DNA of 64,000 nt from a virus (taxonomy: Duplodnaviria; Caudoviricetes). This document shows positions 623 through 23,742 of this stretch, piece after piece; positions within the stretch are counted from its first letter, which is position 1, and each line of letters opens with the position of its first letter. The notes under the pieces are model-generated. The model was not told the DNA's origin. It saw nothing but the letters and a program-made list of their open reading frames with translations, and searched no databases. A program made the translations under genes and the position numbers. Location of the stretch: the IMG/VR virus record IMGVR_UViG_3300042342_001286. The stretch is one strand, 5' to 3'.

Positions 623-1183
623 ATGATTTACCAAGAAAAAATATTTACAAAAGAGGAATGTCAAACTATAATACAATACCACAAAAAATATACAGAATTA
701 GAAGGTTGGTTTCCGTCAAAACTTATCGATGGACAGAGAATAAAAAGTAATCAAAATTTAATGTCATATGAAGTGTACACCATATTAAATAATAATGAAA
801 CCAATTGGTTTTATGATAAATTAATTAATTGGTTTAGTGAAGTTAGTGAAGTTAAAATTGACAAAACTTTTAAAACACTTATATGTACTTTGCATAGATA
901 TACAATTGGCGACCATTTTACAAAGCATATAGATTTAATTAAAGGATACGAAGAAAGAAGATATAATTTAGGGATACAATTGAATGATGACTATGATGGT
1001 GGTGAATACATTACGTGGGATGATTCCGGTAACGAGATTATAATAAATAAAGAACCTGGTACGGCGTTGGGATATCATTGTAGAATATGGCACGAAATAA
1101 AAGAAATTACAAATGGGGAAAGATGGTCTATTGTGATGCCAATTGAAAAAAGTCAAATAATTCAAAAATTAAATTTAATTTAA
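623..1183 (+). CDS. 2OG-Fe(II) oxygenase (prolyl 4-hydroxylase-like)
   Basis: HID, YDGGE and WHEIKEITNGERWS give the HxD...H...R signature. Confidence 0.85.
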   Translation: MIYQEKIFTKEECQTIIQYHKKYTELEGWFPSKLIDGQRIKSNQNLMSYEVYTILNNNETNWFYDKLINWFSEVSEVKIDKTFKTLICTLHRYTIGDHFTKHIDLIKGYEERRYNLGIQLNDDYDGGEYITWDDSGNEIIINKEPGTALGYHCRIWHEIKEITNGERWSIVMPIEKSQIIQKLNLI

Positions 1184-1186
1184 TAA

Positions 1187-1666
1187 ATGAATATTTTTAA
1201 AAATTATATAAGTCAAGACGATATTGATATAATATTAAAATATTATAATTTTGGTAATCAAAATAATGATGTAATATCATATCATGGTAAGTCTTTTGAG
1301 AAAATAGTTCATTTAAAAGAAATATTTTATTGTGATTTAAGTAATCAAATATTAGTTAGTACTATAATAAAATATATAAAATTGGAGGAAGATGAGGTTA
1401 TATATTCATTACATTATATTAAATATGAGACAGGTTATTATGCTAGAAATCATATAGATGTAAAGTCAAGTAAAACGTATTTGATTATGTTAAACGATAG
1501 TTTTGAAGGAGGTGAATTATATGTTAATAATGAATTGGTAAATTTTAAAAAGGGAGATTTAGTTAACTTTAATGGTCAAACCGAACAACATGAGGTTAAA
1601 GAAATAACATCGGGTTGTAGAGAAATTATGGCCATTTGGATCACAAAGAATAAAAGATTATTATGA
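1187..1666 (+). CDS. 2OG-Fe(II) oxygenase
   Basis: NHID, FEGGEL, QHEVKEITSGCR. Confidence 0.85.
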   Translation: MNIFKNYISQDDIDIILKYYNFGNQNNDVISYHGKSFEKIVHLKEIFYCDLSNQILVSTIIKYIKLEEDEVIYSLHYIKYETGYYARNHIDVKSSKTYLIMLNDSFEGGELYVNNELVNFKKGDLVNFNGQTEQHEVKEITSGCREIMAIWITKNKRLL

Positions 1667-1853
1667 CGGTATAAAAAATAGACATATATTCAAAACTATT
1701 TTATATCGTCTTATAAGTATTTTAACCTAATTCTTAACAATATGGTGGATAAAGTGGATCTATTAAGATTGAGACCCCCCCAAAAAAAGGTTGTGAAATT
1801 AGTATGTAAACCCCACTTAATACTATATATATGAGATAATTTGGTATAAATGA
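1663..1853 (+). pseudogene. decayed DUF2061-like small membrane protein
   Basis: Pieces in different frames read KNRHIFKTILYRLISILT*FLTIWWI / SGSIKI / YYIYEIIWYK, matching the RxxxKTxxYR...YYxHERxW pattern; in-frame stop and several frameshifts. Confidence 0.5.
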
Positions 1854-1988
1854 ATAAAATATGAACTAAAAGAGAAAAATTAACTATTTATAGATAAAGT
1901 AAAATAGATTTGATAAATTGAATAATTATTTGTATATTTAAATAAAAATAATCGATATATCATTTATAAAAAAGTATAAACAAAACAT

Positions 1989-3524
1989 ATGAGAACATTG
2001 CTATTAGGGACAGATTTTGCATACAATTCAAATGGTGATTTAAGACCAATTGAGATAAACACCAATATTGGTTGGGATGTGAGATTAGCGGCTGAGACTG
2101 AGGGGGCCATAAATTTGACACAATTTATAAGCTTTGTATCAAACAACAATTTTGTAAAGGTCACATTTATCGGTGGAATTCCACAAGTAAGTGAAAAATT
2201 TAATGAGGCTTGTGTTAATTTGGGGGTAGAATATGAATTTATTGAAACTTTAGGGGGTATTACAATTCCATATATTGAAGATAGTGATAATCACTTAATT
2301 GTAAGAAGTGCCTACGATGTTTCAGCAATCGTTGACGAAACTTACTGCAAAGATAAAGTAAATTTTTTAAAACTGTTTCAGAATGAAAATTTTGGGTTTA
2401 AGTTTGCATATATGGATGAAACTTCACAAGTTATATCAAATATAACGACCATACCTAATAATGGTATACACCCAAACTTTATTTTAAAAGCAAGATTTCC
2501 AATATATGATAGGGAAGTATACCCAAAATTTTTTAAAGTTTCAAATATTGAAGAATTAAATGAAGTTATTACAAATAATGTAAATGAAGATTATTTCTTA
2601 ATGGAATATTTGTTTAATGAGGAAAAATTAAACGAAGGACGTATTACAATTATTCGTTCCTTAAATATCTTATACCCACCAACATTAGAATCGATTCCTA
2701 TCTGTGCATACAAAAAATATGGTAATTTAAAGGTTATGCAAGAATTAAATGACAACTCATATGATAGTCTAACACATCAAATTTCTAATGTAGATAGAAA
2801 CGGATACTTAACAGGGACACAAAGGTTGGTGAAACCTAAATTACTTGATACGGATTTAGTTGTAATGGCAGATGGTAGTTTTAAAACAGGGCAAGATTTA
2901 CAGGTTGGTGATACTGTTAAAACAATTAGACTATATGAAAATCAACCTAACATAACTGAGGCCAACGAATTGAGGACATATAACGTTGATTATAATGAAC
3001 TTCTTTCAAATTCATCATTTAGTACCAATGTAATAACATTTAAAAAAAGAATTGATGTTTCAGTTAAATTAACAACACTAAACTTTAGTGACGAAACAAA
3101 TTGGAAAGATACATCAAATTCTGTTTATTTAATAAAAAGAAATAACAATGTTATGTGGGCAACAATTGGGGAAGATATAAACACACAAACTACATCAAAT
3201 TTACAAATAGGGGATATATTATTATTAATAAATGTTGGTAATTATGATACTATTTCATTTAATGAAAAAACTGTGATATCTATACAAGACGAAACCGAAG
3301 TATTAAGTGGATATATAATAGGTGTACAAGACGAACATATTTTCCTAACCATAACAGATGGTGATTCTGCAACCGTATCATCATATATCGCAGTAGAACA
3401 CAATTCATATTGTGCACCATGTAATTCAATTGGAGTAGGGTCTGGTGGATGTGATAAGATGTATGAAGTTTGTTCGGCAACAGGTGCTTGTGGATATTAT
3501 TCAAATAGATGTCTACAACTCTAA
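1989..3524 (+). CDS. circularly permuted ATP-grasp-like ligase fused to a Hint domain and a C-terminal Cys-rich peptide
   Basis: N-terminal GTDF...IEINTN, then FILKAR and FLMEYL (permuted ATP-grasp order); LVVMADGSFK...LQVGD Hint start; VEHN/S Hint end; 39-aa tail with 6 Cys. Confidence 0.7.
   Translation: MRTLLLGTDFAYNSNGDLRPIEINTNIGWDVRLAAETEGAINLTQFISFVSNNNFVKVTFIGGIPQVSEKFNEACVNLGVEYEFIETLGGITIPYIEDSDNHLIVRSAYDVSAIVDETYCKDKVNFLKLFQNENFGFKFAYMDETSQVISNITTIPNNGIHPNFILKARFPIYDREVYPKFFKVSNIEELNEVITNNVNEDYFLMEYLFNEEKLNEGRITIIRSLNILYPPTLESIPICAYKKYGNLKVMQELNDNSYDSLTHQISNVDRNGYLTGTQRLVKPKLLDTDLVVMADGSFKTGQDLQVGDTVKTIRLYENQPNITEANELRTYNVDYNELLSNSSFSTNVITFKKRIDVSVKLTTLNFSDETNWKDTSNSVYLIKRNNNVMWATIGEDINTQTTSNLQIGDILLLINVGNYDTISFNEKTVISIQDETEVLSGYIIGVQDEHIFLTITDGDSATVSSYIAVEHNSYCAPCNSIGVGSGGCDKMYEVCSATGACGYYSNRCLQL
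2838..3404 (+). other. Hint (intein-like/BIL) domain with Lys at position 1 and terminal His-Asn
   Basis: KLLDTDLVVMADGSFKTGQDLQVGDTV aligns to the CLxxGTxVxMADGxxKxIxxLxVGD pattern; ends HIFLT...VEHN followed by Ser; no homing endonuclease insert visible. Confidence 0.75.
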
Positions 3525-3545
3525 AAAACTATTAAAATTTATATT

Positions 3546-3632
3546 ATGAATACAATAACAGAACAAGAAATATTAGAAATGAATAATTTAATGACCCAAA
3601 TCGGTGCATTAATTATTAACGAAAATTCTTAA
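3546..3632 (+). CDS. 28-aa micro-ORF
   Basis: ATG...TAA reading MNTITEQEILEMNNLMTQIGALIINENS fills the gap after the ATP-grasp-Hint gene. Confidence 0.45.
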   Translation: MNTITEQEILEMNNLMTQIGALIINENS

Positions 3633-3670
3633 AAAATTACACCTATCGTTTAATTAGTTATATTTAATCA

Positions 3671-3955
3671 ATGAGTTTAGATTTATTAGAAATAGTATCC
3701 GCATGGATAACAGCAGCAAACCCATCTGACGCAGAAGCGTCCCTTGCACAAAAACGTTCAGAAATTTGTAATTCTTGTGAACACAAAAAAGAACGTATAA
3801 AAAAATTTAAATTAGGTATAGTTTGTGATTTATGTGGATGTCCATTAATGAAAAAAATTTATTCTAAAAATAACAATCCATGCCCGATTGGAAAATGGGA
3901 AGAAGTTGACAAGTTGTTTTTTGCAAAAAAATTAAATAATGAAAAAATTATTTAA
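3671..3955 (+). CDS. small Cys-rich metal-binding phage protein
   Basis: CNSC...CDLCGCP...CPIGKW pattern. Confidence 0.7.
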   Translation: MSLDLLEIVSAWITAANPSDAEASLAQKRSEICNSCEHKKERIKKFKLGIVCDLCGCPLMKKIYSKNNNPCPIGKWEEVDKLFFAKKLNNEKII

Positions 3956-4638
3956 TGTCAATTCTTATTAACAATCAACTTATTTGGGTTTCAATTCCAA
4001 GATGTGCGTCTGTCTCAATAGAAGATTCATTAAAAAATAATAATCAATTACAAATAAATCTAACATCTAAAGAACCCTACCCCAATATAAATACAAACCA
4101 CCATTTTCATTTTAGAAAAAACTTCTTATTAGAAGAATTTGGTTTTCAAAAAACTTGTTGTATCACAAGAAATTGGTTTGACAGATGGTATAGTGCATTG
4201 GAATATTTTTTTGAAATATCAAATCATCTTCATAGAAACGAATTAAAATATAATTGGTCGGATATTGATAATAACTTTATTTATGAATATTTTAATAAAA
4301 ATTTAGCAGATGCAATATATTGTGATAATGAATATAAAATACAAAAAGAATATAGTAAATTTTTTAATGTAATAAATAAAAACTTACCCGATACGTTATC
4401 GATATTTGCATGTAAGAATTATTGGACAGATAACACAAAATGTGATTATGAATTTGATATTTCCGAAATAGATAAATTCAAAAATTTAATATATGAAAAA
4501 TTTGGTGTAGTATTAAAAATTAAAAAAATGAATGGAACATCAAAAATAAAAAATAAAATTGAAGTTAATGATGAATTAAAAAAATGGGTTTGGGATGTTT
4601 TTGAAAAGCCCTTCACCAAAAATATGAGATTAGTGTAA
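3955..4638 (+). CDS. sulfotransferase family protein
   Basis: WVSIPRCASVSI (IPKxAxTS-like) and ITRNWFDRWYSA (RxPxxRxxS-like). Confidence 0.6.
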   Translation: MSILINNQLIWVSIPRCASVSIEDSLKNNNQLQINLTSKEPYPNINTNHHFHFRKNFLLEEFGFQKTCCITRNWFDRWYSALEYFFEISNHLHRNELKYNWSDIDNNFIYEYFNKNLADAIYCDNEYKIQKEYSKFFNVINKNLPDTLSIFACKNYWTDNTKCDYEFDISEIDKFKNLIYEKFGVVLKIKKMNGTSKIKNKIEVNDELKKWVWDVFEKPFTKNMRLV

Positions 4639-5264
4639 TGAAACAAAAATCTAATTTATATATTTGTGGTGATAGTTTTGTTGATTGGGAAGTACCTAAA
4701 ATGCATTGGACGGACTATCTATCCAATCATTATAACGTAATTAAATTTGGAAAATTTGGAGCTGATAATCACTCTATATTATACCAAACAGGAAATATAC
4801 CAAATTATACAAATGGTGATAGAATCATAATAGTTTTTACATCCCCATCAAGATTCCCAAGAAGATATTTTGGGGAAAGAGAAATAAATCATAATTCAAA
4901 ATATTTAAATTGGGAATGGTATAAGGATAAATTATTTGCAAAAAAACTGTTTGAATTACGAATTAAAGAAACAAATAGTTGGTTAAATGGTGAACGAGAC
5001 GATGAAATTTTATTTCTTAAGAAAATAAAAATGTTTTATAACCACCACCAACCAATATTTGTAACATGGAACGATGAGTTTTATGAAAAAACAAAAGAGT
5101 TTATAGAATTAATAAAAGTAACTTCTATTGCAGATGAAGGAGGTGACCCAATAGATTGGCATCCAGGTTGGAAAGGGTGCCATGATTTTTATGTTAAACT
5201 ACATAAACTTTTAAATATAGATGAACCAATTGTAGATTTTAAAAATAATAAAAGTATAATATGA
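4638..5264 (+). CDS. SGNH/GDSL-like hydrolase or acyltransferase
   Basis: N-terminal CGDSF and C-terminal DWHP. Confidence 0.55.
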   Translation: MKQKSNLYICGDSFVDWEVPKMHWTDYLSNHYNVIKFGKFGADNHSILYQTGNIPNYTNGDRIIIVFTSPSRFPRRYFGEREINHNSKYLNWEWYKDKLFAKKLFELRIKETNSWLNGERDDEILFLKKIKMFYNHHQPIFVTWNDEFYEKTKEFIELIKVTSIADEGGDPIDWHPGWKGCHDFYVKLHKLLNIDEPIVDFKNNKSII

Positions 5265-5842
5265 AAATAGAAAAATATAAAATAGATTATCCATACGATA
5301 AACAAATATTAATTAGTCAACTTAAAAAAAATATTAATTTATATTCATCCCAAACAGGTGATTATGATTCTCCTGGTATACAAACTCCATTAGGATTGGT
5401 CACAAAGGAAATCACTTTCATAAAAGAAATAGCAACTAAAAAGGCAATTGATTATCTCAAAAAGAATGGTATAATTGATACGGTTATAGATTATTGTTTA
5501 GAGACTTGGGTTTTTATATCAAGAAATGAAACAAAACAATCTTTATGGCATGACCATTTAAAAATGGGAGGAAAATATAAAAATTCCATTATAACTGATT
5601 TAACCTTCACTTATTATGTACAAATGCCAAATAATTTAAATGGTAATGAAGGTATGTTCTCATATAGTTTTGATAAAAATGAATTTTCAGTTTTACCTGA
5701 AGAAGACGAATTATTTTTATTTTCGTCAAAAATACTTCACAAACCTGAAATTTCCCCAAATTCAACTAAAGATAGAATTGTAATTGCTGGTAATTTTAAA
5801 TTTAATGTTTCTAATGTAAAAGAAAAAAATACATTATTATAA
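5261..5842 (+). CDS. putative 2OG-Fe(II) oxygenase
   Basis: WHDH, YYVQMP, LHKP...DRIVIAGN. Confidence 0.7.
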   Translation: MKIEKYKIDYPYDKQILISQLKKNINLYSSQTGDYDSPGIQTPLGLVTKEITFIKEIATKKAIDYLKKNGIIDTVIDYCLETWVFISRNETKQSLWHDHLKMGGKYKNSIITDLTFTYYVQMPNNLNGNEGMFSYSFDKNEFSVLPEEDELFLFSSKILHKPEISPNSTKDRIVIAGNFKFNVSNVKEKNTLL

Positions 5843-5928
5843 TTTTATTATGTAATAAATTTTTAACATATAATTAAAATTATAAAATAAATTAATATGA
5901 GAGCTTTAACAACATCAATTTTTTAATA

Positions 5929-6489
5929 ATGGTTATAACAATACTAGCAGAACCACGAAGTGGATCAACCAACTTAACTAATTGGTTTTTTAGTAATAAA
6001 AATTTTACCACATTATTTGAACCCATAACAAGTCCAAATTGGAAGTGGTATAAACATGGTGTATCACCAAAATTGTGGGAATATAAAACACCACACATTT
6101 TAATTAAAGAAACATATGATATTAAAACAGATTTTTCAGAATTAATAGAAATATCAGATAAGGTAATTATTTTATATAGAGAAAATATAAGTGAACAAAG
6201 TGAATCTTGGTTAAATGCTAATAAAACAAATAATTGGGATAAAGCATGGGTATTTAAAGAAAATTTAATAAAAGACGGAGATGTATCATATTTTAATCAA
6301 ATCAAAAACGGATTAAAAGAAAATTATTTAAATAAAGATTATTTTAATATATCATATGAAGAACTATATTACAATAATGGTTTTCAAAAAATATTAGATT
6401 ATTTAAATATGGTTGAATTAGAAAATAAAAATTTTCCTTACGGAGAAAAATATAGAATAAATGTTAATAAAGGAACAAGTCTTATTTAA
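5929..6489 (+). CDS. sulfotransferase-like protein (Stf0-like)
   Basis: EPRSGST PAPS-binding loop, LYREN, ISYEEL. Confidence 0.6.
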   Translation: MVITILAEPRSGSTNLTNWFFSNKNFTTLFEPITSPNWKWYKHGVSPKLWEYKTPHILIKETYDIKTDFSELIEISDKVIILYRENISEQSESWLNANKTNNWDKAWVFKENLIKDGDVSYFNQIKNGLKENYLNKDYFNISYEELYYNNGFQKILDYLNMVELENKNFPYGEKYRINVNKGTSLI

Positions 6490-6961
6490 TAAAGAGGAGT
6501 GTGAATCTATAATATCGTATAACGACACCCATATTAAAAATTGGATAATGAGTGATAGAAAATATAATTCACAATCAATTACATATTCGTTGGAAACGAA
6601 ATGGTTGTTTGATAAACTTAAAACATTTTTTGAAGAACAATCAAACATACGGATAAAAAAAAATAAAGAAGTTATACATTTTCATAAATTTGTAAAAGGT
6701 GATTGGTTTGGAAAACATAATGATATTAGAAATAATAGATTATATGCAGTGGGAGTTTTATTAAATGGTGATTTTGAAGGAGGTGACTTTAAATTGTATA
6801 ACCCAAATGAAATTACATTAGATAAAGTTATTGGGAATACATATTTATTTGATGTAAGAATAGACCATGAAATAACACCAATTTTAGAAGGTGTACGATA
6901 TTCTTTATTATGGTTTTTAGAAAACGAACATATAAAAATAGAAACAAATAAATTAATATGA
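6461..6961 (+). CDS. 2OG-Fe(II) oxygenase
   Basis: KHND, FEGGDF, HEITPILEGVRYSL. Confidence 0.85.
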   Translation: MLIKEQVLFNKEECESIISYNDTHIKNWIMSDRKYNSQSITYSLETKWLFDKLKTFFEEQSNIRIKKNKEVIHFHKFVKGDWFGKHNDIRNNRLYAVGVLLNGDFEGGDFKLYNPNEITLDKVIGNTYLFDVRIDHEITPILEGVRYSLLWFLENEHIKIETNKLI

Positions 6962-7770
6962 ATCCACTAAAATATTGGGACCCTAATGAATTTGAAATCT
7001 CATCGTACAAGTTTAAATTAGGTGAACGAAAAAACAAAATATTTAAAACATCAGGTACAGACAACACAGGTTTATGTACATACACATATAATGAATTAGG
7101 ATTTAGAGGTGATAGTATTAAAAGAGAAGGGTTTAAAATTATGTCATTTGGATGTTCAAATACCGAAGGTGTTGCGGTTAATGATCATGAAACTTGGCCA
7201 GCTCAATTCACATCATTGATACCAAATGGTGTTAATTTTAATTTTGGTGCTGGCGGTAGAAGTAATGATTTCATTGTTAGATGTTTATTAACGTATTATG
7301 ATGTAATAAAACCTGATTTAATATTTATAATGTATCCTTCACCTTTAAGAAGAGAAATATATACTAAAGATTGTGGTATTGAACCGTTCATGCCAACGGC
7401 TTCTTGGGGTTATTTAAAAGAAACTGATGATGGTATTAAAACACAAGAATATTTAACTTATTTACAAAATTATAATGAGGATACCGTAAATTGGTATAAA
7501 AATCATTTATTAATAAAATATTTTTTAGAATCTAAAAATTGTAATTGGGTATGGAATGGTTGGAATGTTAGAGAAATAACATCGATAGATCATAATGAAC
7601 TCAACAGATTTGATGGTGATTATGGGAAATATTTAGATTTAGGTGTGGATAATGGACATCCAGGGCCTAACCATAATAAGACCTATGCAAATAAACTACA
7701 TGATTTTATATCAAAAAATTTCCCAAGTTATATAAATTATTTACCAAAAAATAAACAAAATTTGATTTGA
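6958..7770 (+). CDS. SGNH-like protein
   Basis: YNELGFRG, FGCSNTEG, FNFGAGG, DNGHPG. Confidence 0.55.
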   Translation: MNPLKYWDPNEFEISSYKFKLGERKNKIFKTSGTDNTGLCTYTYNELGFRGDSIKREGFKIMSFGCSNTEGVAVNDHETWPAQFTSLIPNGVNFNFGAGGRSNDFIVRCLLTYYDVIKPDLIFIMYPSPLRREIYTKDCGIEPFMPTASWGYLKETDDGIKTQEYLTYLQNYNEDTVNWYKNHLLIKYFLESKNCNWVWNGWNVREITSIDHNELNRFDGDYGKYLDLGVDNGHPGPNHNKTYANKLHDFISKNFPSYINYLPKNKQNLI

Positions 7771-11196: not shown

Positions 11197-13325
11197 TGGG
11201 ATATACACAATTTAATGATGATGTTTTTGTAGTTGACTGCTGGCCTGATAATAAAGATAAAGAAAATGTTTTAAAGAAATTACTTATAAGTTTAAAGGTT
11301 TATAACTGTCCCATTATATTATGTGGACATTATGCAGTTTCACCTGAGATACAAGTGTTAGCAGATTACTATCTATATGATGGTAATAACGACATATTAT
11401 TAGAAAAGGATTTTGCTGAGTATGGTATTAATAGTGATAGATGGACCGATATGGGTTCATATAAGATAACTAATAAAATAGATTTTCATCACGACTATGC
11501 AATTTGGTTGACAATGAAAAATGCTTTCAATCTTGTTAAACAATTAGGTAAACAATATATTCATTTCTTAGAGTATGATAACTTACCAGATGAAATTCAG
11601 TATCGTCAAGCATTTATGGAATATATTAGAAGTAATGATGCCGTGGTTTACGAGTATTCAGAAGGATCAACAAAAGAAAGTAATCCATATAGTTCAGCTT
11701 ATATCTTTTCAATTAAGACCGATGTTGCGTTAAAGATGATTAGTCTTATTAATAGTAAAGAAGAATACTTCAAGGGTAAACCCGATAGATGGCAATTAGA
11801 AAAACAATTATACCAATCAATTAAGAAGGTTACCAATAGTATATTTGTTAGTAAGTATATCCCTAATGATAATGAACTTAATATGTTTGCGGTATGGAAC
11901 AGAAATGGTATATTAAAAAATGGTGCACGTTTACAAACTTATTTAGGTGTTGATGATGCGGGACAATTGTTTATTCATTTTATATCCGGATTTTCAGAAC
12001 AACCAGCCGATAAGGATTATTTAATTGAAGTTAACTATGGAACATATAAAAAATTCCATACAGTTAAAAAGGGTGAATACAAATTAGAAAGACTCGGTGA
12101 ATATAAACAAAATGAAGTAGTTGAAGTACGTCATCAAGGATTGGAAATATTCACACAGGAACTTAAAGATGAAATGAATGAGTTTAGAAGAAAGAATAAA
12201 CTATCAAGAAATAATGTTAACACAAATAGAAGAACTAACATACATTTTGTTGATGGTCCATTTGTTGAGGTATTAGAAGAAGGTGATTATCTTTATAATG
12301 TTAAATTTATAGATAAGAAAAATGGTAAATTAGAATTTGAGTTTAATTTAAAGAGTAATCATTGGGTTAGGTCGTCTAAAAAATACTATGTAGATTGGTT
12401 AATTAAAATTAAAGGCGTTGATAATAATTTCTACCAAGAGTATAATTTTGATTTAACGGATAAAAGAGTAATGATATGTTTTGAATCTAAATCATTAGGA
12501 GATAGTTTGGCTTGGATACCATATGTTGAGAAATTTAGAACAGATAATAAATGTAAAGTAATTTGTTCATCATTCAATAACGATCTATTCAAAGATCAGT
12601 ATCCCGATATTGAGTTCGTTTTACCTGGATCAAATGTAAATAATATACATGCGTTGTATCGTTTAGGTTTATTTTATACCAATGATCGTAAAATTGATAA
12701 CACAAAACATTACAACGATCCTAAAAGGGAACCATTAATGAAAGTGGCGTCCGACATTCTTGGATTAGATTATTTGGAACTTAAACCTAAATTAAAGAAA
12801 TTAGGTAAGAAGAAGAAAAAATTGGTTTCAATTGCTATTCATTCAACAGCTCAATGTAAATATTGGAATAACCCGACTGGTTGGCAGGAGGTGGTAGATT
12901 ATCTTAAAGCTAAGAATTATGAAGTTAGACTCTTATCTCGTGAGGAAGATGGTTACATGGGTAACAAACATCCTAAAGGAATTACGGTACAACCTAAGAG
13001 TAAACTGACCGATATCATAAAAGTTTTACAAGAGTCTGAATTATTTATAGGTATAAGCAGTGGATTAAGTTGGTTATCTTGGGCGTCAGGAACCCCTACA
13101 GTAATTATTTCAGGTTTTACTGACGTAGATTTAGAACCATTAGACGGTGTAACAAGGGTAATCAATAAAAATGTATGTAATAGTTGTTGGTCTAACCATG
13201 AATTTGATCCAGGTAATTGGAATTGGTGTCCCATTCATGAGAAGACAGAAAATCAGTTTGAATGTTCAAAAACTATCACAGGAGGAGAAGTTATAGAAAA
13301 ACTCGAAAAACTTCTACCAATTTAA
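11196..13325 (+). CDS. Aah/TibC-like autotransporter O-heptosyltransferase (GT9-like) with extra N-terminal domain
   Basis: SLGDSLAWIPY, KYWNNPTGW, FIGISSGLSWLSW and four C-terminal Cys (CNSC, WCP, FEC) like the TibC iron site. Confidence 0.8.
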   Translation: MGYTQFNDDVFVVDCWPDNKDKENVLKKLLISLKVYNCPIILCGHYAVSPEIQVLADYYLYDGNNDILLEKDFAEYGINSDRWTDMGSYKITNKIDFHHDYAIWLTMKNAFNLVKQLGKQYIHFLEYDNLPDEIQYRQAFMEYIRSNDAVVYEYSEGSTKESNPYSSAYIFSIKTDVALKMISLINSKEEYFKGKPDRWQLEKQLYQSIKKVTNSIFVSKYIPNDNELNMFAVWNRNGILKNGARLQTYLGVDDAGQLFIHFISGFSEQPADKDYLIEVNYGTYKKFHTVKKGEYKLERLGEYKQNEVVEVRHQGLEIFTQELKDEMNEFRRKNKLSRNNVNTNRRTNIHFVDGPFVEVLEEGDYLYNVKFIDKKNGKLEFEFNLKSNHWVRSSKKYYVDWLIKIKGVDNNFYQEYNFDLTDKRVMICFESKSLGDSLAWIPYVEKFRTDNKCKVICSSFNNDLFKDQYPDIEFVLPGSNVNNIHALYRLGLFYTNDRKIDNTKHYNDPKREPLMKVASDILGLDYLELKPKLKKLGKKKKKLVSIAIHSTAQCKYWNNPTGWQEVVDYLKAKNYEVRLLSREEDGYMGNKHPKGITVQPKSKLTDIIKVLQESELFIGISSGLSWLSWASGTPTVIISGFTDVDLEPLDGVTRVINKNVCNSCWSNHEFDPGNWNWCPIHEKTENQFECSKTITGGEVIEKLEKLLPI

Positions 13326-13385: not shown

Positions 13386-14843
13386 ATGAAAATATTTGAC
13401 GCAAATGTCTCTGGATCACTAAATGTATCGGGCTCGGCTCGTTTTTTTGGAGATCTTACCGTAGACGGAACAATAAATGCAACCATTAGTGGTACAACAT
13501 CAAACGCTTCGGCCCTAAACACAACAGGTTCCGCTCGTTTTGCAACCACAGGTAGTAACACATTTAACGCTAACCAAACAATTAGTGGATCAATAATCCC
13601 TGCCGTTACTAATACTTACGATTTGGGTGACCCAACACATTGGTGGAAGGACATCTACGTATCAACAGGATCTATCTTTATTGGTGGAATTAAAGCTATC
13701 AGTACAAACTCTGATGGTACAATACAAGTAGGTGCTCAAGTTGTACAAACTTCAGCAAGTTTGGCCGCAGTAGGTCTTGCACTTCCTCCAACAGGTTCTA
13801 TAGGAACAAGTCAAAGTACGATAGTAGGTAGTCAAAATATTACAGGTAGTCAATCTATCACAGGTAGTTTGGCTGTTAGTGGTAGTATGGTTGTGACTGG
13901 TTCATTATTCATTAATGGAACATCATATACTGCCGCTTCATCAGGAACTTCAGGTTCTTCTGGTTCTAGTGGATCTAACGGTTCATCAGGAACTTCAGGT
14001 TCTTCAGGATCTAACGGTTCTTCAGGTTCTTCAGGAACATCAGGATCTAGTGGATCTAACGGTTCTTCAGGAACTTCAGGTTCTTCAGGATCTAACGGTT
14101 CTTCAGGTTCTTCAGGAACATCAGGATCTAGTGGATCTAACGGTTCTTCAGGAACTTCAGGTTCTTCAGGATCTAGTGGATCTTCAGGAACTTCAGGTTC
14201 TAGTGGATCTAACGGTTCTTCAGGTTCTAGTGGATCTAACGGTTCTTCAGGAACATCAGGATCTAGTGGTTCTTCAGGAACATCAGGTTCTTCAGGAGCT
14301 AACGGTTCTTCAGGAACTTCAGGTTCTTCAGGATCTAACGGTTCTTCAGGTTCTTCTGGTACAACAACAATTACAAACGCAAGTGATGACCGTGTAATGA
14401 CAAGTGCGGGTGGAGTTACCCTAAATAGTGAAGCAAATTTAACATTTAACGGAACAACACTATATGTGGCAGGAGCGTTAGGTGTGGGTACATCAACACC
14501 AACAACCACAGGTTTAATTAGAGCAACAAATGACGTTATTGCATTCTACGGTTCTGATGAAAGACTAAAAGAAAACATCACACCAATTGAAAATTCTTTA
14601 GATATCTTAAAACAAATAAATGGTTATTACTTCGATTGGAAGGAAATGCCAGGTGTTCATGAGAACGAAGGTCACGATATAGGGGTTATTGCACAAGAAA
14701 TTGACGCAGTTTTACCTGAAATTGTAACAACAAGAGACAACGGTTATATGGCTGTTAAATACGAAAAATTAGTTGCATTGTTAATTCAAACAAACAAAGA
14801 ATTATTAAATCGTGTTGAAGCTTTAGAAGCGAAAATAAAATAA
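13386..14843 (+). CDS. tail fibre/spike protein with Ser/Gly repeat and C-terminal peptidase S74 (intramolecular chaperone) domain
   Basis: YDLGDPTHWWKDIY fibre motif; GSDERLKENI, GVIAQEI, VKYEKLVALLI and coiled-coil end. Confidence 0.85.
   Translation: MKIFDANVSGSLNVSGSARFFGDLTVDGTINATISGTTSNASALNTTGSARFATTGSNTFNANQTISGSIIPAVTNTYDLGDPTHWWKDIYVSTGSIFIGGIKAISTNSDGTIQVGAQVVQTSASLAAVGLALPPTGSIGTSQSTIVGSQNITGSQSITGSLAVSGSMVVTGSLFINGTSYTAASSGTSGSSGSSGSNGSSGTSGSSGSNGSSGSSGTSGSSGSNGSSGTSGSSGSNGSSGSSGTSGSSGSNGSSGTSGSSGSSGSSGTSGSSGSNGSSGSSGSNGSSGTSGSSGSSGTSGSSGANGSSGTSGSSGSNGSSGSSGTTTITNASDDRVMTSAGGVTLNSEANLTFNGTTLYVAGALGVGTSTPTTTGLIRATNDVIAFYGSDERLKENITPIENSLDILKQINGYYFDWKEMPGVHENEGHDIGVIAQEIDAVLPEIVTTRDNGYMAVKYEKLVALLIQTNKELLNRVEALEAKIK
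13938..14360 (+). repeat. 47 tandem 9-nt units encoding SSG/TSG/SNG/ANG
   Basis: Counted from the translation; Gly every third residue; contains a near-identical 81-nt direct duplication. Confidence 0.95.
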
Positions 14844-23499: not shown

Positions 23500-23742
23500 T
23501 TATGCTCTTTGTCCTCCGTTTATTCTTCCCGTTAATATATTTATTACTTCGTTGTCAATTTCTTCCACAATTTGTTCCGACATTAATCTTGTTAATTCGG
23601 CCTCAGCATCAATTGAGTAAACGGTATTTAAATCATCAACCAACTCAGGTCTCCATTGAGCACGTAGTGTTCTAACGATATTCTGAATACCTTCTGATTG
23701 AATTGTTATCCCATGAAAAAATCTAAACTCTCTAACACCCAT
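23500..23742 (-). CDS. 80-aa protein containing a T4 gp23-type major capsid spine-helix segment
   Basis: RTLRAQWRPELVDDL...IDAEAELTRLMSEQIVEEIDNEVI matches the recalled gp23 pattern RKLKAQWTxELAQDL...DAEAELxxILSxEIxxEIxREI. Confidence 0.7.
   Translation of the reverse strand: MGVREFRFFHGITIQSEGIQNIVRTLRAQWRPELVDDLNTVYSIDAEAELTRLMSEQIVEEIDNEVINILTGRINGGQRA

Follow-up and report, generated by a model that had tools for sequence, protein, structure and literature searches.

The DNA analysed here, referred to below as the window, is a stretch of 64,000 nucleotides from a virus of the Caudoviricetes (IMG/VR record IMGVR_UViG_3300042342_001286). At positions 1989-3524 it carries a single open reading frame (ORF) whose predicted product joins a circularly permuted ATP-grasp amide ligase, a Hint domain resembling inteins and bacterial intein-like (BIL) domains, and a short Cys-rich C-terminal tail. 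An initial annotation, made from the letters alone, had described a D-F...E-I-N motif at the extreme N-terminus followed by later K and MEY motifs, a Hint domain with Lys at position 1 and a His-Asn end, and a tail of 39 residues with six Cys; all of these are present in the translation (D9-F10 and E22-I23-N24; K167 and M205-E206-Y207; Lys at residue 284, nt 2838, and H471-N472 ending at nt 3404; tail encoded at 3405-3521). The elements of the fusion gene, with the evidence for each, are the following.

1989..3524, plus strand: ligase-Hint-peptide fusion ORF, 511 amino acids (aa), protein P0001; open frame, 615 homologs, AlphaFold2 (AF2) model with predicted local distance difference test (pLDDT) 84 and predicted template modelling score (pTM) 0.81.
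1989..2834, plus strand: predicted circularly permuted GspS/YgiC-like ATP-grasp amide-ligase domain, residues 1-282; key residues D9, E22-x-N24 (metal), R106, D116, K167 and R223; AF2, VIA structure search, Foldseek and conservation.
2835..3404, plus strand: predicted Hint (BIL/intein-like) domain, residues 283-472; Lys284 at position 1, block F/G-like VxxxH-x-F-L-T ... E-H-N, H471-N472 end; VIA, Foldseek and conservation.
3402..3407, plus strand: predicted scissile bond Asn472/Ser473 (Asn cyclisation); conservation of H471 and N472, free +1 residue.
3405..3521, plus strand: tail of 39 aa (P0001:473-511) with six Cys and one Lys; translation and statistics of 180 unique tails.
3456-3458, plus strand: tail Lys K490, two residues past the third Cys.

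The fusion ORF and its relatives

The ORF is a genuine gene and did not arise as an open frame by chance, because a word-index protein search found 615 relatives of the 511-aa product, HMMER recovered 265 matches among 1.84 billion cluster representatives, and 81 loci carrying the gene were obtained from IMG/VR, on contigs of up to 335 kb. Among the matches listed (120), the relatives measure 483-521 aa, cover at least 93% of the query and all come without a protein name; the source of the full-length relatives, more than 600, is always viral or metagenomic DNA. No relative of the gene was present in 50,697 GenBank phage records (tblastn and megablast) or in a scan of 185,579 prokaryote species genomes, and the ORF matched nothing in Pfam, NCBIfam or the PDB sequences. 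The library signals that it gave were a weak partial match in PHROGs to phrog_9050 (residues 152-210, E ~1e-3), for which no function is known, and a stretch resembling AXH where the Hint domain begins.

The N-terminal ligase domain

Modelled alone from 114 homologs, residues 1-282 reached a pLDDT of 94.4. When this model was compared with 48,161 PDB representative chains in an unbiased VIA structure search, the ten best matches were solely YgiC, Gss, glutathione and homoglutathione synthetases, two GspS-like proteins from Methylobacillus, trypanothione synthetase and Cp1B (Z 8.2-6.5), with alignments beginning at model residue 1 to 4; Foldseek, run against PDB and the AlphaFold database, returned the same families. 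The permuted enzymes align over YgiC 94-380 and Gss 311-609, whereas for unpermuted ATP-grasps (RimK, LysX/ArgX, TTLLs, Ddl, PurK) the alignment begins only at model residues 51-57. Such a difference in starting point is expected if the permuted C-terminal metal-binding element corresponds to the first two strands, where D9 and E22-x-N24 lie. Structure prediction and fold search thus agree on the permuted GspS-like ATP-grasp that the motif order had originally suggested.

At the level of sequence the resemblance is slight. Using hhalign against YgiC, YjfC and Gss, only residues 8-31 were aligned, with YgiC 101-124 around the D...E-x-N motif and without significance (E 0.029, probability 1.7%); the register is identical to that of the structural alignment, and the motif also aligns with the R-M-D-F ... 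Y-E-Y-N-A-D stretch of Gss. The domain does not match the GSP_synth or CP_ATPgrasp models of Pfam and NCBIfam. Conservation was counted over 234 homologs, down to ~25% identity: R223 is kept in all 234, E22, N24, R106, D116 and K167 in 233 each, and D9 in 230. The roles of K167 as the ATP-binding Lys and of R223 as the catalytic Arg were assigned by order and analogy. The phage domain begins where YgiC residue 94 and Gss residue 311 would stand, and the N-terminal pre-ATP-grasp domain is absent; we take the missing ~93 N-terminal residues of YgiC to be this substrate-binding pre-domain. These results strongly support the prediction that residues 1-282 form an active, minimal carboxylate-amine ligase of the GspS/YgiC class with its catalytic residues intact; it forms a new sequence family within this structural class.

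The Hint domain and the predicted cleavage site

For the Hint domain, searched with the full-length model, the best VIA match was BIL2 of Tetrahymena (6y75), with Z 13.8 and a root-mean-square deviation of 2.7 Å over 149 residues, and more than 40 inteins, a Clostridium BIL and hedgehog matched at Z 10-12.6. In total 90 chains gave a Z of at least 8, and among the matches listed (50) all are inteins, BIL or hedgehog; in many of the intein alignments model residues 284-470 start at the intein's first residue and reach its last few residues. Foldseek gave an E of 4e-9, so that the Hint fold noticed in the initial annotation is recovered by structure prediction and by fold search. The Pfam models PF01079, PF07591, PF13403 and PF14890 do not match the domain, and no Pfam hit was found at E up to 1, either with the whole protein or with residues 280-511.

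The two ends of the domain are under very different constraint. Across the 234 homologs position 1 is K in 139, T in 14 and S in 13, followed by N, Q and L, and it is Cys in none. No invariant or near-invariant His that could be the block-B T-x-x-H residue exists within residues 283-470, and H450, in the block F-like motif, is kept in 125/234. At the C-terminal end, H471 is retained in 225/234 homologs and N472 in 231/234, the triplet EHN is found in 121/121 close homologs, and the block F/G-like stretch that precedes H471-N472 is conserved as well. The residue after Asn472 is unconstrained (A, Y, V, L, F, P, S and others), so the Cys, Ser or Thr required for splicing is not maintained. Because of the Lys at position 1, the lack of a block-B His and the free +1 residue, this Hint domain is predicted to form no N-terminal thioester and to be unable to splice, while it keeps what is required for C-terminal Asn cyclisation. 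Its best reading, which conservation supports well, is that Asn472 would cyclise, and so cut the chain, without help from a nucleophile at residue 1.

The Cys-rich tail

What follows Asn472 behaves differently from the two domains. Pairwise identity is 55% in the ligase, 50% in the Hint domain and 31% in the tail (15% outside Cys), so the pattern that had been proposed as a check, a conserved enzyme and HN end with a hypervariable tail, holds across the 234 homologs. The rate of nonsynonymous differences (pN) in the tail is 4-5x that of the domains, and that of synonymous differences (pS) is likewise raised. Positive selection on the tail is not supported, since the raised pS fits cassette exchange or alignment noise; exchange of tail cassettes would be as likely an explanation of these rates as point-wise diversifying selection.

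Some properties of the tail are nevertheless nearly constant. In 180 distinct tails, of 15-70 residues, the number of Cys is even (6, 8, 10 or 12) in 177, and Lys is present in every one, exactly once in 112; from the composition of the tails, about 1/4 of them would be free of Lys by chance. Arg is absent from 73. In 161/180 a Lys follows a Cys at a distance of no more than three residues, often as C-P-K, C-S-K or C-G-K, and acidic residues are scarce (D 3.3%, E 2.1%). No tail matched Pfam, including its knottin, inhibitor and toxin families.

In squash knottins and Bowman-Birk loops a Cys-x-Lys stretch forms the reactive loop, which is a lead only, and it brings up the alternative that the two halves of the protein work independently: the Hint domain would release a disulfide-knotted effector, for example a serine-protease inhibitor with a Cys-x-Lys loop, and the ligase would make some unrelated small amide such as a peptide-polyamine. 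The position of the Lys, the even Cys counts, the hypervariability of the remainder, as would be seen in a contested binding surface, and the small-molecule substrates for which this ligase family is known all speak for such a division of labour. Nonetheless, the fusion is kept family-wide to 25% identity, which argues for functional coupling, none of the tails resembles an inhibitor family of Pfam, and a peptide without an export signal would be oxidised only after lysis; we therefore regard independent halves as quite unlikely.

Relatives with other payloads

Distant relatives retain the ligase-Hint-HN core and exchange what comes after it. Their Cys-rich tails reach 60-odd residues. In some of them the Cys-rich stretch is followed by a Peptidase_S74 self-cleaving chaperone; in others a Cys-rich stretch, or only 2-7 residues, precedes one or two canonical Hint domains with Cys1, which end in HN plus 1-13 residues (Lys-rich stubs) and lack a +1 nucleophile. 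This second Hint does match the curated Pfam Hint models. The placing of a peptide between two self-cutting modules speaks for the payload being excised. Tandem cleavage-only Hints occur in P0192, P0219, P0235, P0242, P0245, P0257, P0260 and P0261 (and at L085:6001-7959, in a related locus), and they recall BIL-Ubl-BIL loci. Other distant relatives carry extensions of 700-1,240 aa after HN; one of them is a protein of 1,667 aa (P0212, L087:150-5153) with a BACON-containing payload of 1,240 aa, which has a 30-aa micro-ORF upstream and is followed by a tail sheath gene (L087:5583-7562).

The non-peptide payloads bear on the nature of the system. The initial annotation had proposed a candidate system akin to those of ribosomally synthesised peptides with post-translational modifications (RiPPs); both domains, the motif order and the conservation pattern stand, and RiPP biosynthesis is not the only reading, given what can follow HN in these relatives. 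With the long payloads and the S74 forms, a role connected with the virion is still a candidate. In that case the payload would be a surface element of the virion and the ligase-Hint part a device for assembly or attachment, for example for fixing it covalently to a tail or capsid protein, so that the Cys-rich tail would be a receptor-binding or decoration tip instead of a free peptide. The S74 chaperone is typical of phage fibres, the BACON payload is encoded directly upstream of the sheath gene, and both in the window and in L085 the gene block lies no more than ~10 kb from an S74-type tail fibre gene. A peptide of 39 aa is small for a structural part, however, its separation from the N-terminal domains is implied by the invariant HN, and no PHROG structural family matches the fusion protein, which leaves a role in building the virion distinctly improbable.

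A tail fibre ORF of the window, at 13386-14843, lies ~10 kb downstream of the block and combines collagen-like repeats with a C-terminal region matching distal tail-fibre PHROGs.

The micro-ORF and the zinc-ribbon partner

The genes around the fusion ORF in the window are listed here.

3546..3632, plus strand: conserved micro-ORF of 28 aa ending in I-G-x-L-I-[VI]-x-[AE]-N-S; found in 50/51 loci.
3671..3955, plus strand: zinc-ribbon-like partner of 94 aa, CxxC ... CxxCxC ... CPxxKW, with a C-terminal tag; found in 80/81 loci.
623-1183 and 1187-1666, plus strand: two 2-oxoglutarate (2OG)-Fe(II) oxygenase genes, both tagged; PF13640, E 5e-10 and 1e-8.
3955-4638, 4638-5264, 5261-5842, 5929-6489, 6461-6961 and 6958-7770, plus strand: with the zinc-ribbon partner, a co-oriented row of seven ORFs, all ending in the tag.

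A homologous micro-ORF of 24-29 aa begins 9-58 nt past the fusion stop codon in 50/51 loci (in one locus it overlaps the stop). G(-9), L(-7) and S(-1), counted from its end, are invariant, the pooled pN/pS is 0.47, and divergent versions accompany the distant fusion variants; gene callers often miss it. The zinc-ribbon partner gene lies a median of 128 nt downstream. Its product has W12, R29, C36, C52, C55, C57, C71 and W76 invariant and gives weak matches to DUF6171 and zinc ribbons; a complex prediction with the fusion protein scored 0.00, which speaks neither for nor against binding. A scan of 1500-4100 for promoters and terminators found sites no commoner than in shuffled sequence.

A C-terminal tag on the neighbouring genes

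The tag is a C-terminal motif, [K/N]-x-[polar]-[L/I]-[L/I/V]. Of the ORFs flanking the fusion gene in the window (623-7770, the fusion itself excluded), 9/10 end in it, against 0/80 elsewhere (Fisher p 1.4e-11). Over 50 non-redundant loci, with the 50 fusion ORFs removed, it is carried by 264/370 same-strand ORFs within 5 kb downstream versus 41/370 upstream (p 6e-67), and in a complete relative of 335.6 kb, 8 of the 25 tagged ORFs fall within 6.8 kb after the fusion gene (G001:C1:281921-288557). A cause at the DNA level, such as a shared junction or a regulatory motif, was ruled out, as codons and downstream contexts differ; with codons differing, the tag is a feature of the proteins.

The tagged families, which have no other kinship, include the zinc-ribbon partner (41/42), 2OG-oxygenase-like proteins, a 229-aa family labelled sulfotransferase-like in a separate remark of the initial annotation and without a Pfam match, radical-SAM enzymes and GDSL-like proteins; a carbamoyltransferase and an APS kinase encoded upstream are untagged. 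These two, with a DUF2061 protein, recur upstream of the fusion gene in ~20/50 loci (e.g. L004:3002-4663, L004:5524-5955, L085:2007-4299), a radical-SAM enzyme is encoded downstream in 28/50, and L085 has a tryptophan halogenase with the tag. The tag may serve for docking, as a substrate of the ligase, for sorting or as a degron.

The possibility that it is a substrate leads to another explanation of the whole locus. YgiC and YjfC are annotated as peptide--spermidine ligases (PMC12568646), and all the structural relatives (Gss, YgiC/YjfC, glutathione synthetase, Cp1B) share a chemistry in which a terminal carboxylate is activated and an amine added to it, which would make the C-terminus of the micro-peptide or the tag an acyl donor and the tail Lys the amine. 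The ligase would then activate the C-terminal carboxylate of the micro-peptide or of tagged proteins, with the tag as the recognition signal, and join it to the tail Lys or to the alpha-amine that the Hint domain exposes; the product, a branched peptide or a protein-peptide conjugate, would be released by the Hint domain, and each ligase molecule would be used once, having been translated together with its amine substrate. The Lys side chain resembles a polyamine end and is found in 180/180 tails, the micro-peptide has an invariant C-terminus, and the tag is a conserved C-terminus confined to ligase-adjacent genes. On the other hand, the two candidate acyl donors end unlike each other, in N-S and in hydrophobic pairs, and the tag could equally be a signal for docking, sorting or degradation; conjugation of this kind is an attractive if rather unlikely account.

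Carrier phages and distribution

The carriers of the fusion gene are T4-like large myoviruses; gp23-type capsid genes are found in two related records, one of 335.6 kb that is complete by CheckV and one of 269 kb. Besides the full capsid gene, these relatives contain short free-standing pieces of the gp23 family (G001:C1:302958-303137 and 13016-13273; G002:C1:8721-8945), in agreement with a separate remark of the initial annotation on window 23500-23742.

The window's own DNA is present in no fewer than 20 metagenome runs of lake water or freshwater, from 2018 to 2024, and the region was found in no RNA run. Contig pieces from four other lake runs (2018-2020) show 0 differences to the window, with the tail included (X18, 3265-3745). 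No hypervariation within the population was seen, and the variation of the tail therefore sits between lineages. The segment 1900-4000 recurs with 0 differences in contig pieces of lake-water metagenomes from different studies and years (2018-2024). The phage of the window represents a stable and widespread freshwater population.

Proposed mechanism

The best explanation of these observations is that the fusion gene heads a multi-gene phage block for the modification of peptides or proteins. We propose a self-processing ligase-Hint precursor that frees a peptide on which the ligase acts, with the tagged block taking part, and give this whole chain of events a probability of about 0.5; our confidence in the cleavage at Asn472 alone, as read from the conserved residues, is higher. 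The obligatory tail Lys, the micro-ORF, the zinc-ribbon partner and the tag on the neighbouring enzymes go beyond the initial annotation and bear on the mechanism. Asn472 would cyclise to a succinimide, breaking the Asn472-Ser473 bond; the peptide of 39 residues freed in this way would have a new alpha-amine, a single Lys (K490) and six Cys able to pair in three disulfides after leaving the reducing cytoplasm. Fusion would provide one peptide per ligase and keep it at the enzyme until release, so that the most likely role of the ligase would be to form a single amide bond on it, at the obligatory Lys or at a terminus of the peptide, before or just after the cleavage. The initial annotation had proposed that the ligase might cyclise or modify the released peptide or ligate it to a target such as a virion protein. 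To the same system would belong the micro-peptide, the zinc-ribbon protein, the tagged oxygenases, the sulfotransferase-like and SGNH-like proteins and, in relatives, radical-SAM enzymes. The product differs in sequence from one phage lineage to another and probably acts as an effector outside the cell or in association with the virion. With its variable C-terminal peptide, built-in release, nearby oxygenases and, in relatives, radical-SAM enzymes, the layout appears compatible with a RiPP system.

Several points weigh against this proposal. Inteins usually cyclise their Asn slowly when this reaction is not coupled to the N-terminal steps. In the model the tail has a pLDDT below 50, and nothing in it shows the tail reaching the active site. 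There are relatives almost without a tail (5-7 residues) or with only 2-7 residues between two Hints, and these minimal tails, like the long BACON payload, imply that the payload need not be a peptide substrate and that the ligase may serve another purpose. Finally, glycans or the tail fibre encoded nearby could just as well be what the neighbouring enzymes modify.

If the proposed precursor is correct, the phage would both make and release a variable disulfide-rich peptide in a self-contained manner, with enzyme, release device and substrate in one polypeptide and without a leader protease. For Hint domains it would represent a natural version that carries out only C-terminal cleavage, and for GspS-type ligases a minimal phage form with a protein-borne substrate; in phage biology it would supply a peptide or decoration specific to the lineage, the variability of which suggests that the phages contend here with hosts or competitors. 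As a tool, the module could also release peptides without a protease. Large T4-like phages of lakes and oceans carry the family in abundance, and it is absent from GenBank phages and the curated family libraries searched.

Comparison with known systems

Both superfamilies are already known, as is the release of variable C-terminal modules by Hint domains (BIL, PT-HINT). New are the fusion of a Hint domain with a ligase, the Hint domain without a nucleophile, the Cys-rich tail with its obligatory Lys, the micro-ORF and the row of tagged enzymes. No description of a ligase-Hint-peptide fusion was found in the searchable literature, which did not cover the 2009 amidoligase survey, in accordance with the initial view that the layout was undescribed.

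The ligase domain shares with Gss (2io7), YgiC/YjfC (7uka, 7uk6), glutathione synthetase, trypanothione synthetase and the fungal Cp1B the permuted topology in which D...E-x-N comes first, followed by the ATP-binding Lys, the hinge and the Arg. In contrast to the Gss/YgiC class, it has no significant sequence similarity to these proteins, is reduced to 282 aa, is devoid of the first ~93 residues of YgiC and is fused to a Hint domain.

As in BIL domains (BIL2 of the Tetrahymena BUBL, 6y75, and the BIL of C. thermocellum, 2lwy) and in PT-HINT proteins, the Hint domain would serve for autoproteolysis and not for splicing, and it has a constant part on its N-terminal side and a variable payload on its C-terminal side; distant relatives also resemble BIL-Ubl-BIL loci in having the payload between a Hint ending in HN and a Cys1 Hint. 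The domain departs from BIL and PT-HINT in its Lys at position 1 and in the lack of the block-B His, which would restrict it to the C-terminal cut, and in being missed by the Pfam Hint models. Further differences are that an enzyme takes the place of a trafficking domain as the constant part, that the gene is borne by a phage, and that no immunity gene is evident. As regards polymorphic toxins, a variable payload does come after the Hint domain; the tails contain no Pfam toxin domain, and the conserved downstream genes lack the variability expected of immunity genes.

Borosins (OphMA-type) are autocatalytic RiPP precursors in which a methyltransferase and the peptide reside in one chain and a separate protease is used for release. 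The fusion protein likewise unites a modifying enzyme with its presumed substrate peptide, placed at the C-terminus; it differs in using an ATP-grasp ligase and a built-in Hint release, and the modification of its tail is putative. The graspetide enzymes (microviridin-type) and the peptide ligase PGM1 (3wvq) are also ATP-grasp proteins, and act on ribosomal peptides. They are nevertheless unpermuted, 3wvq reaching a Z of only 4.2 with an alignment that starts at residue 57, and graspetide cores need Asp or Glu partners, in which the tails of the fusion family are poor.

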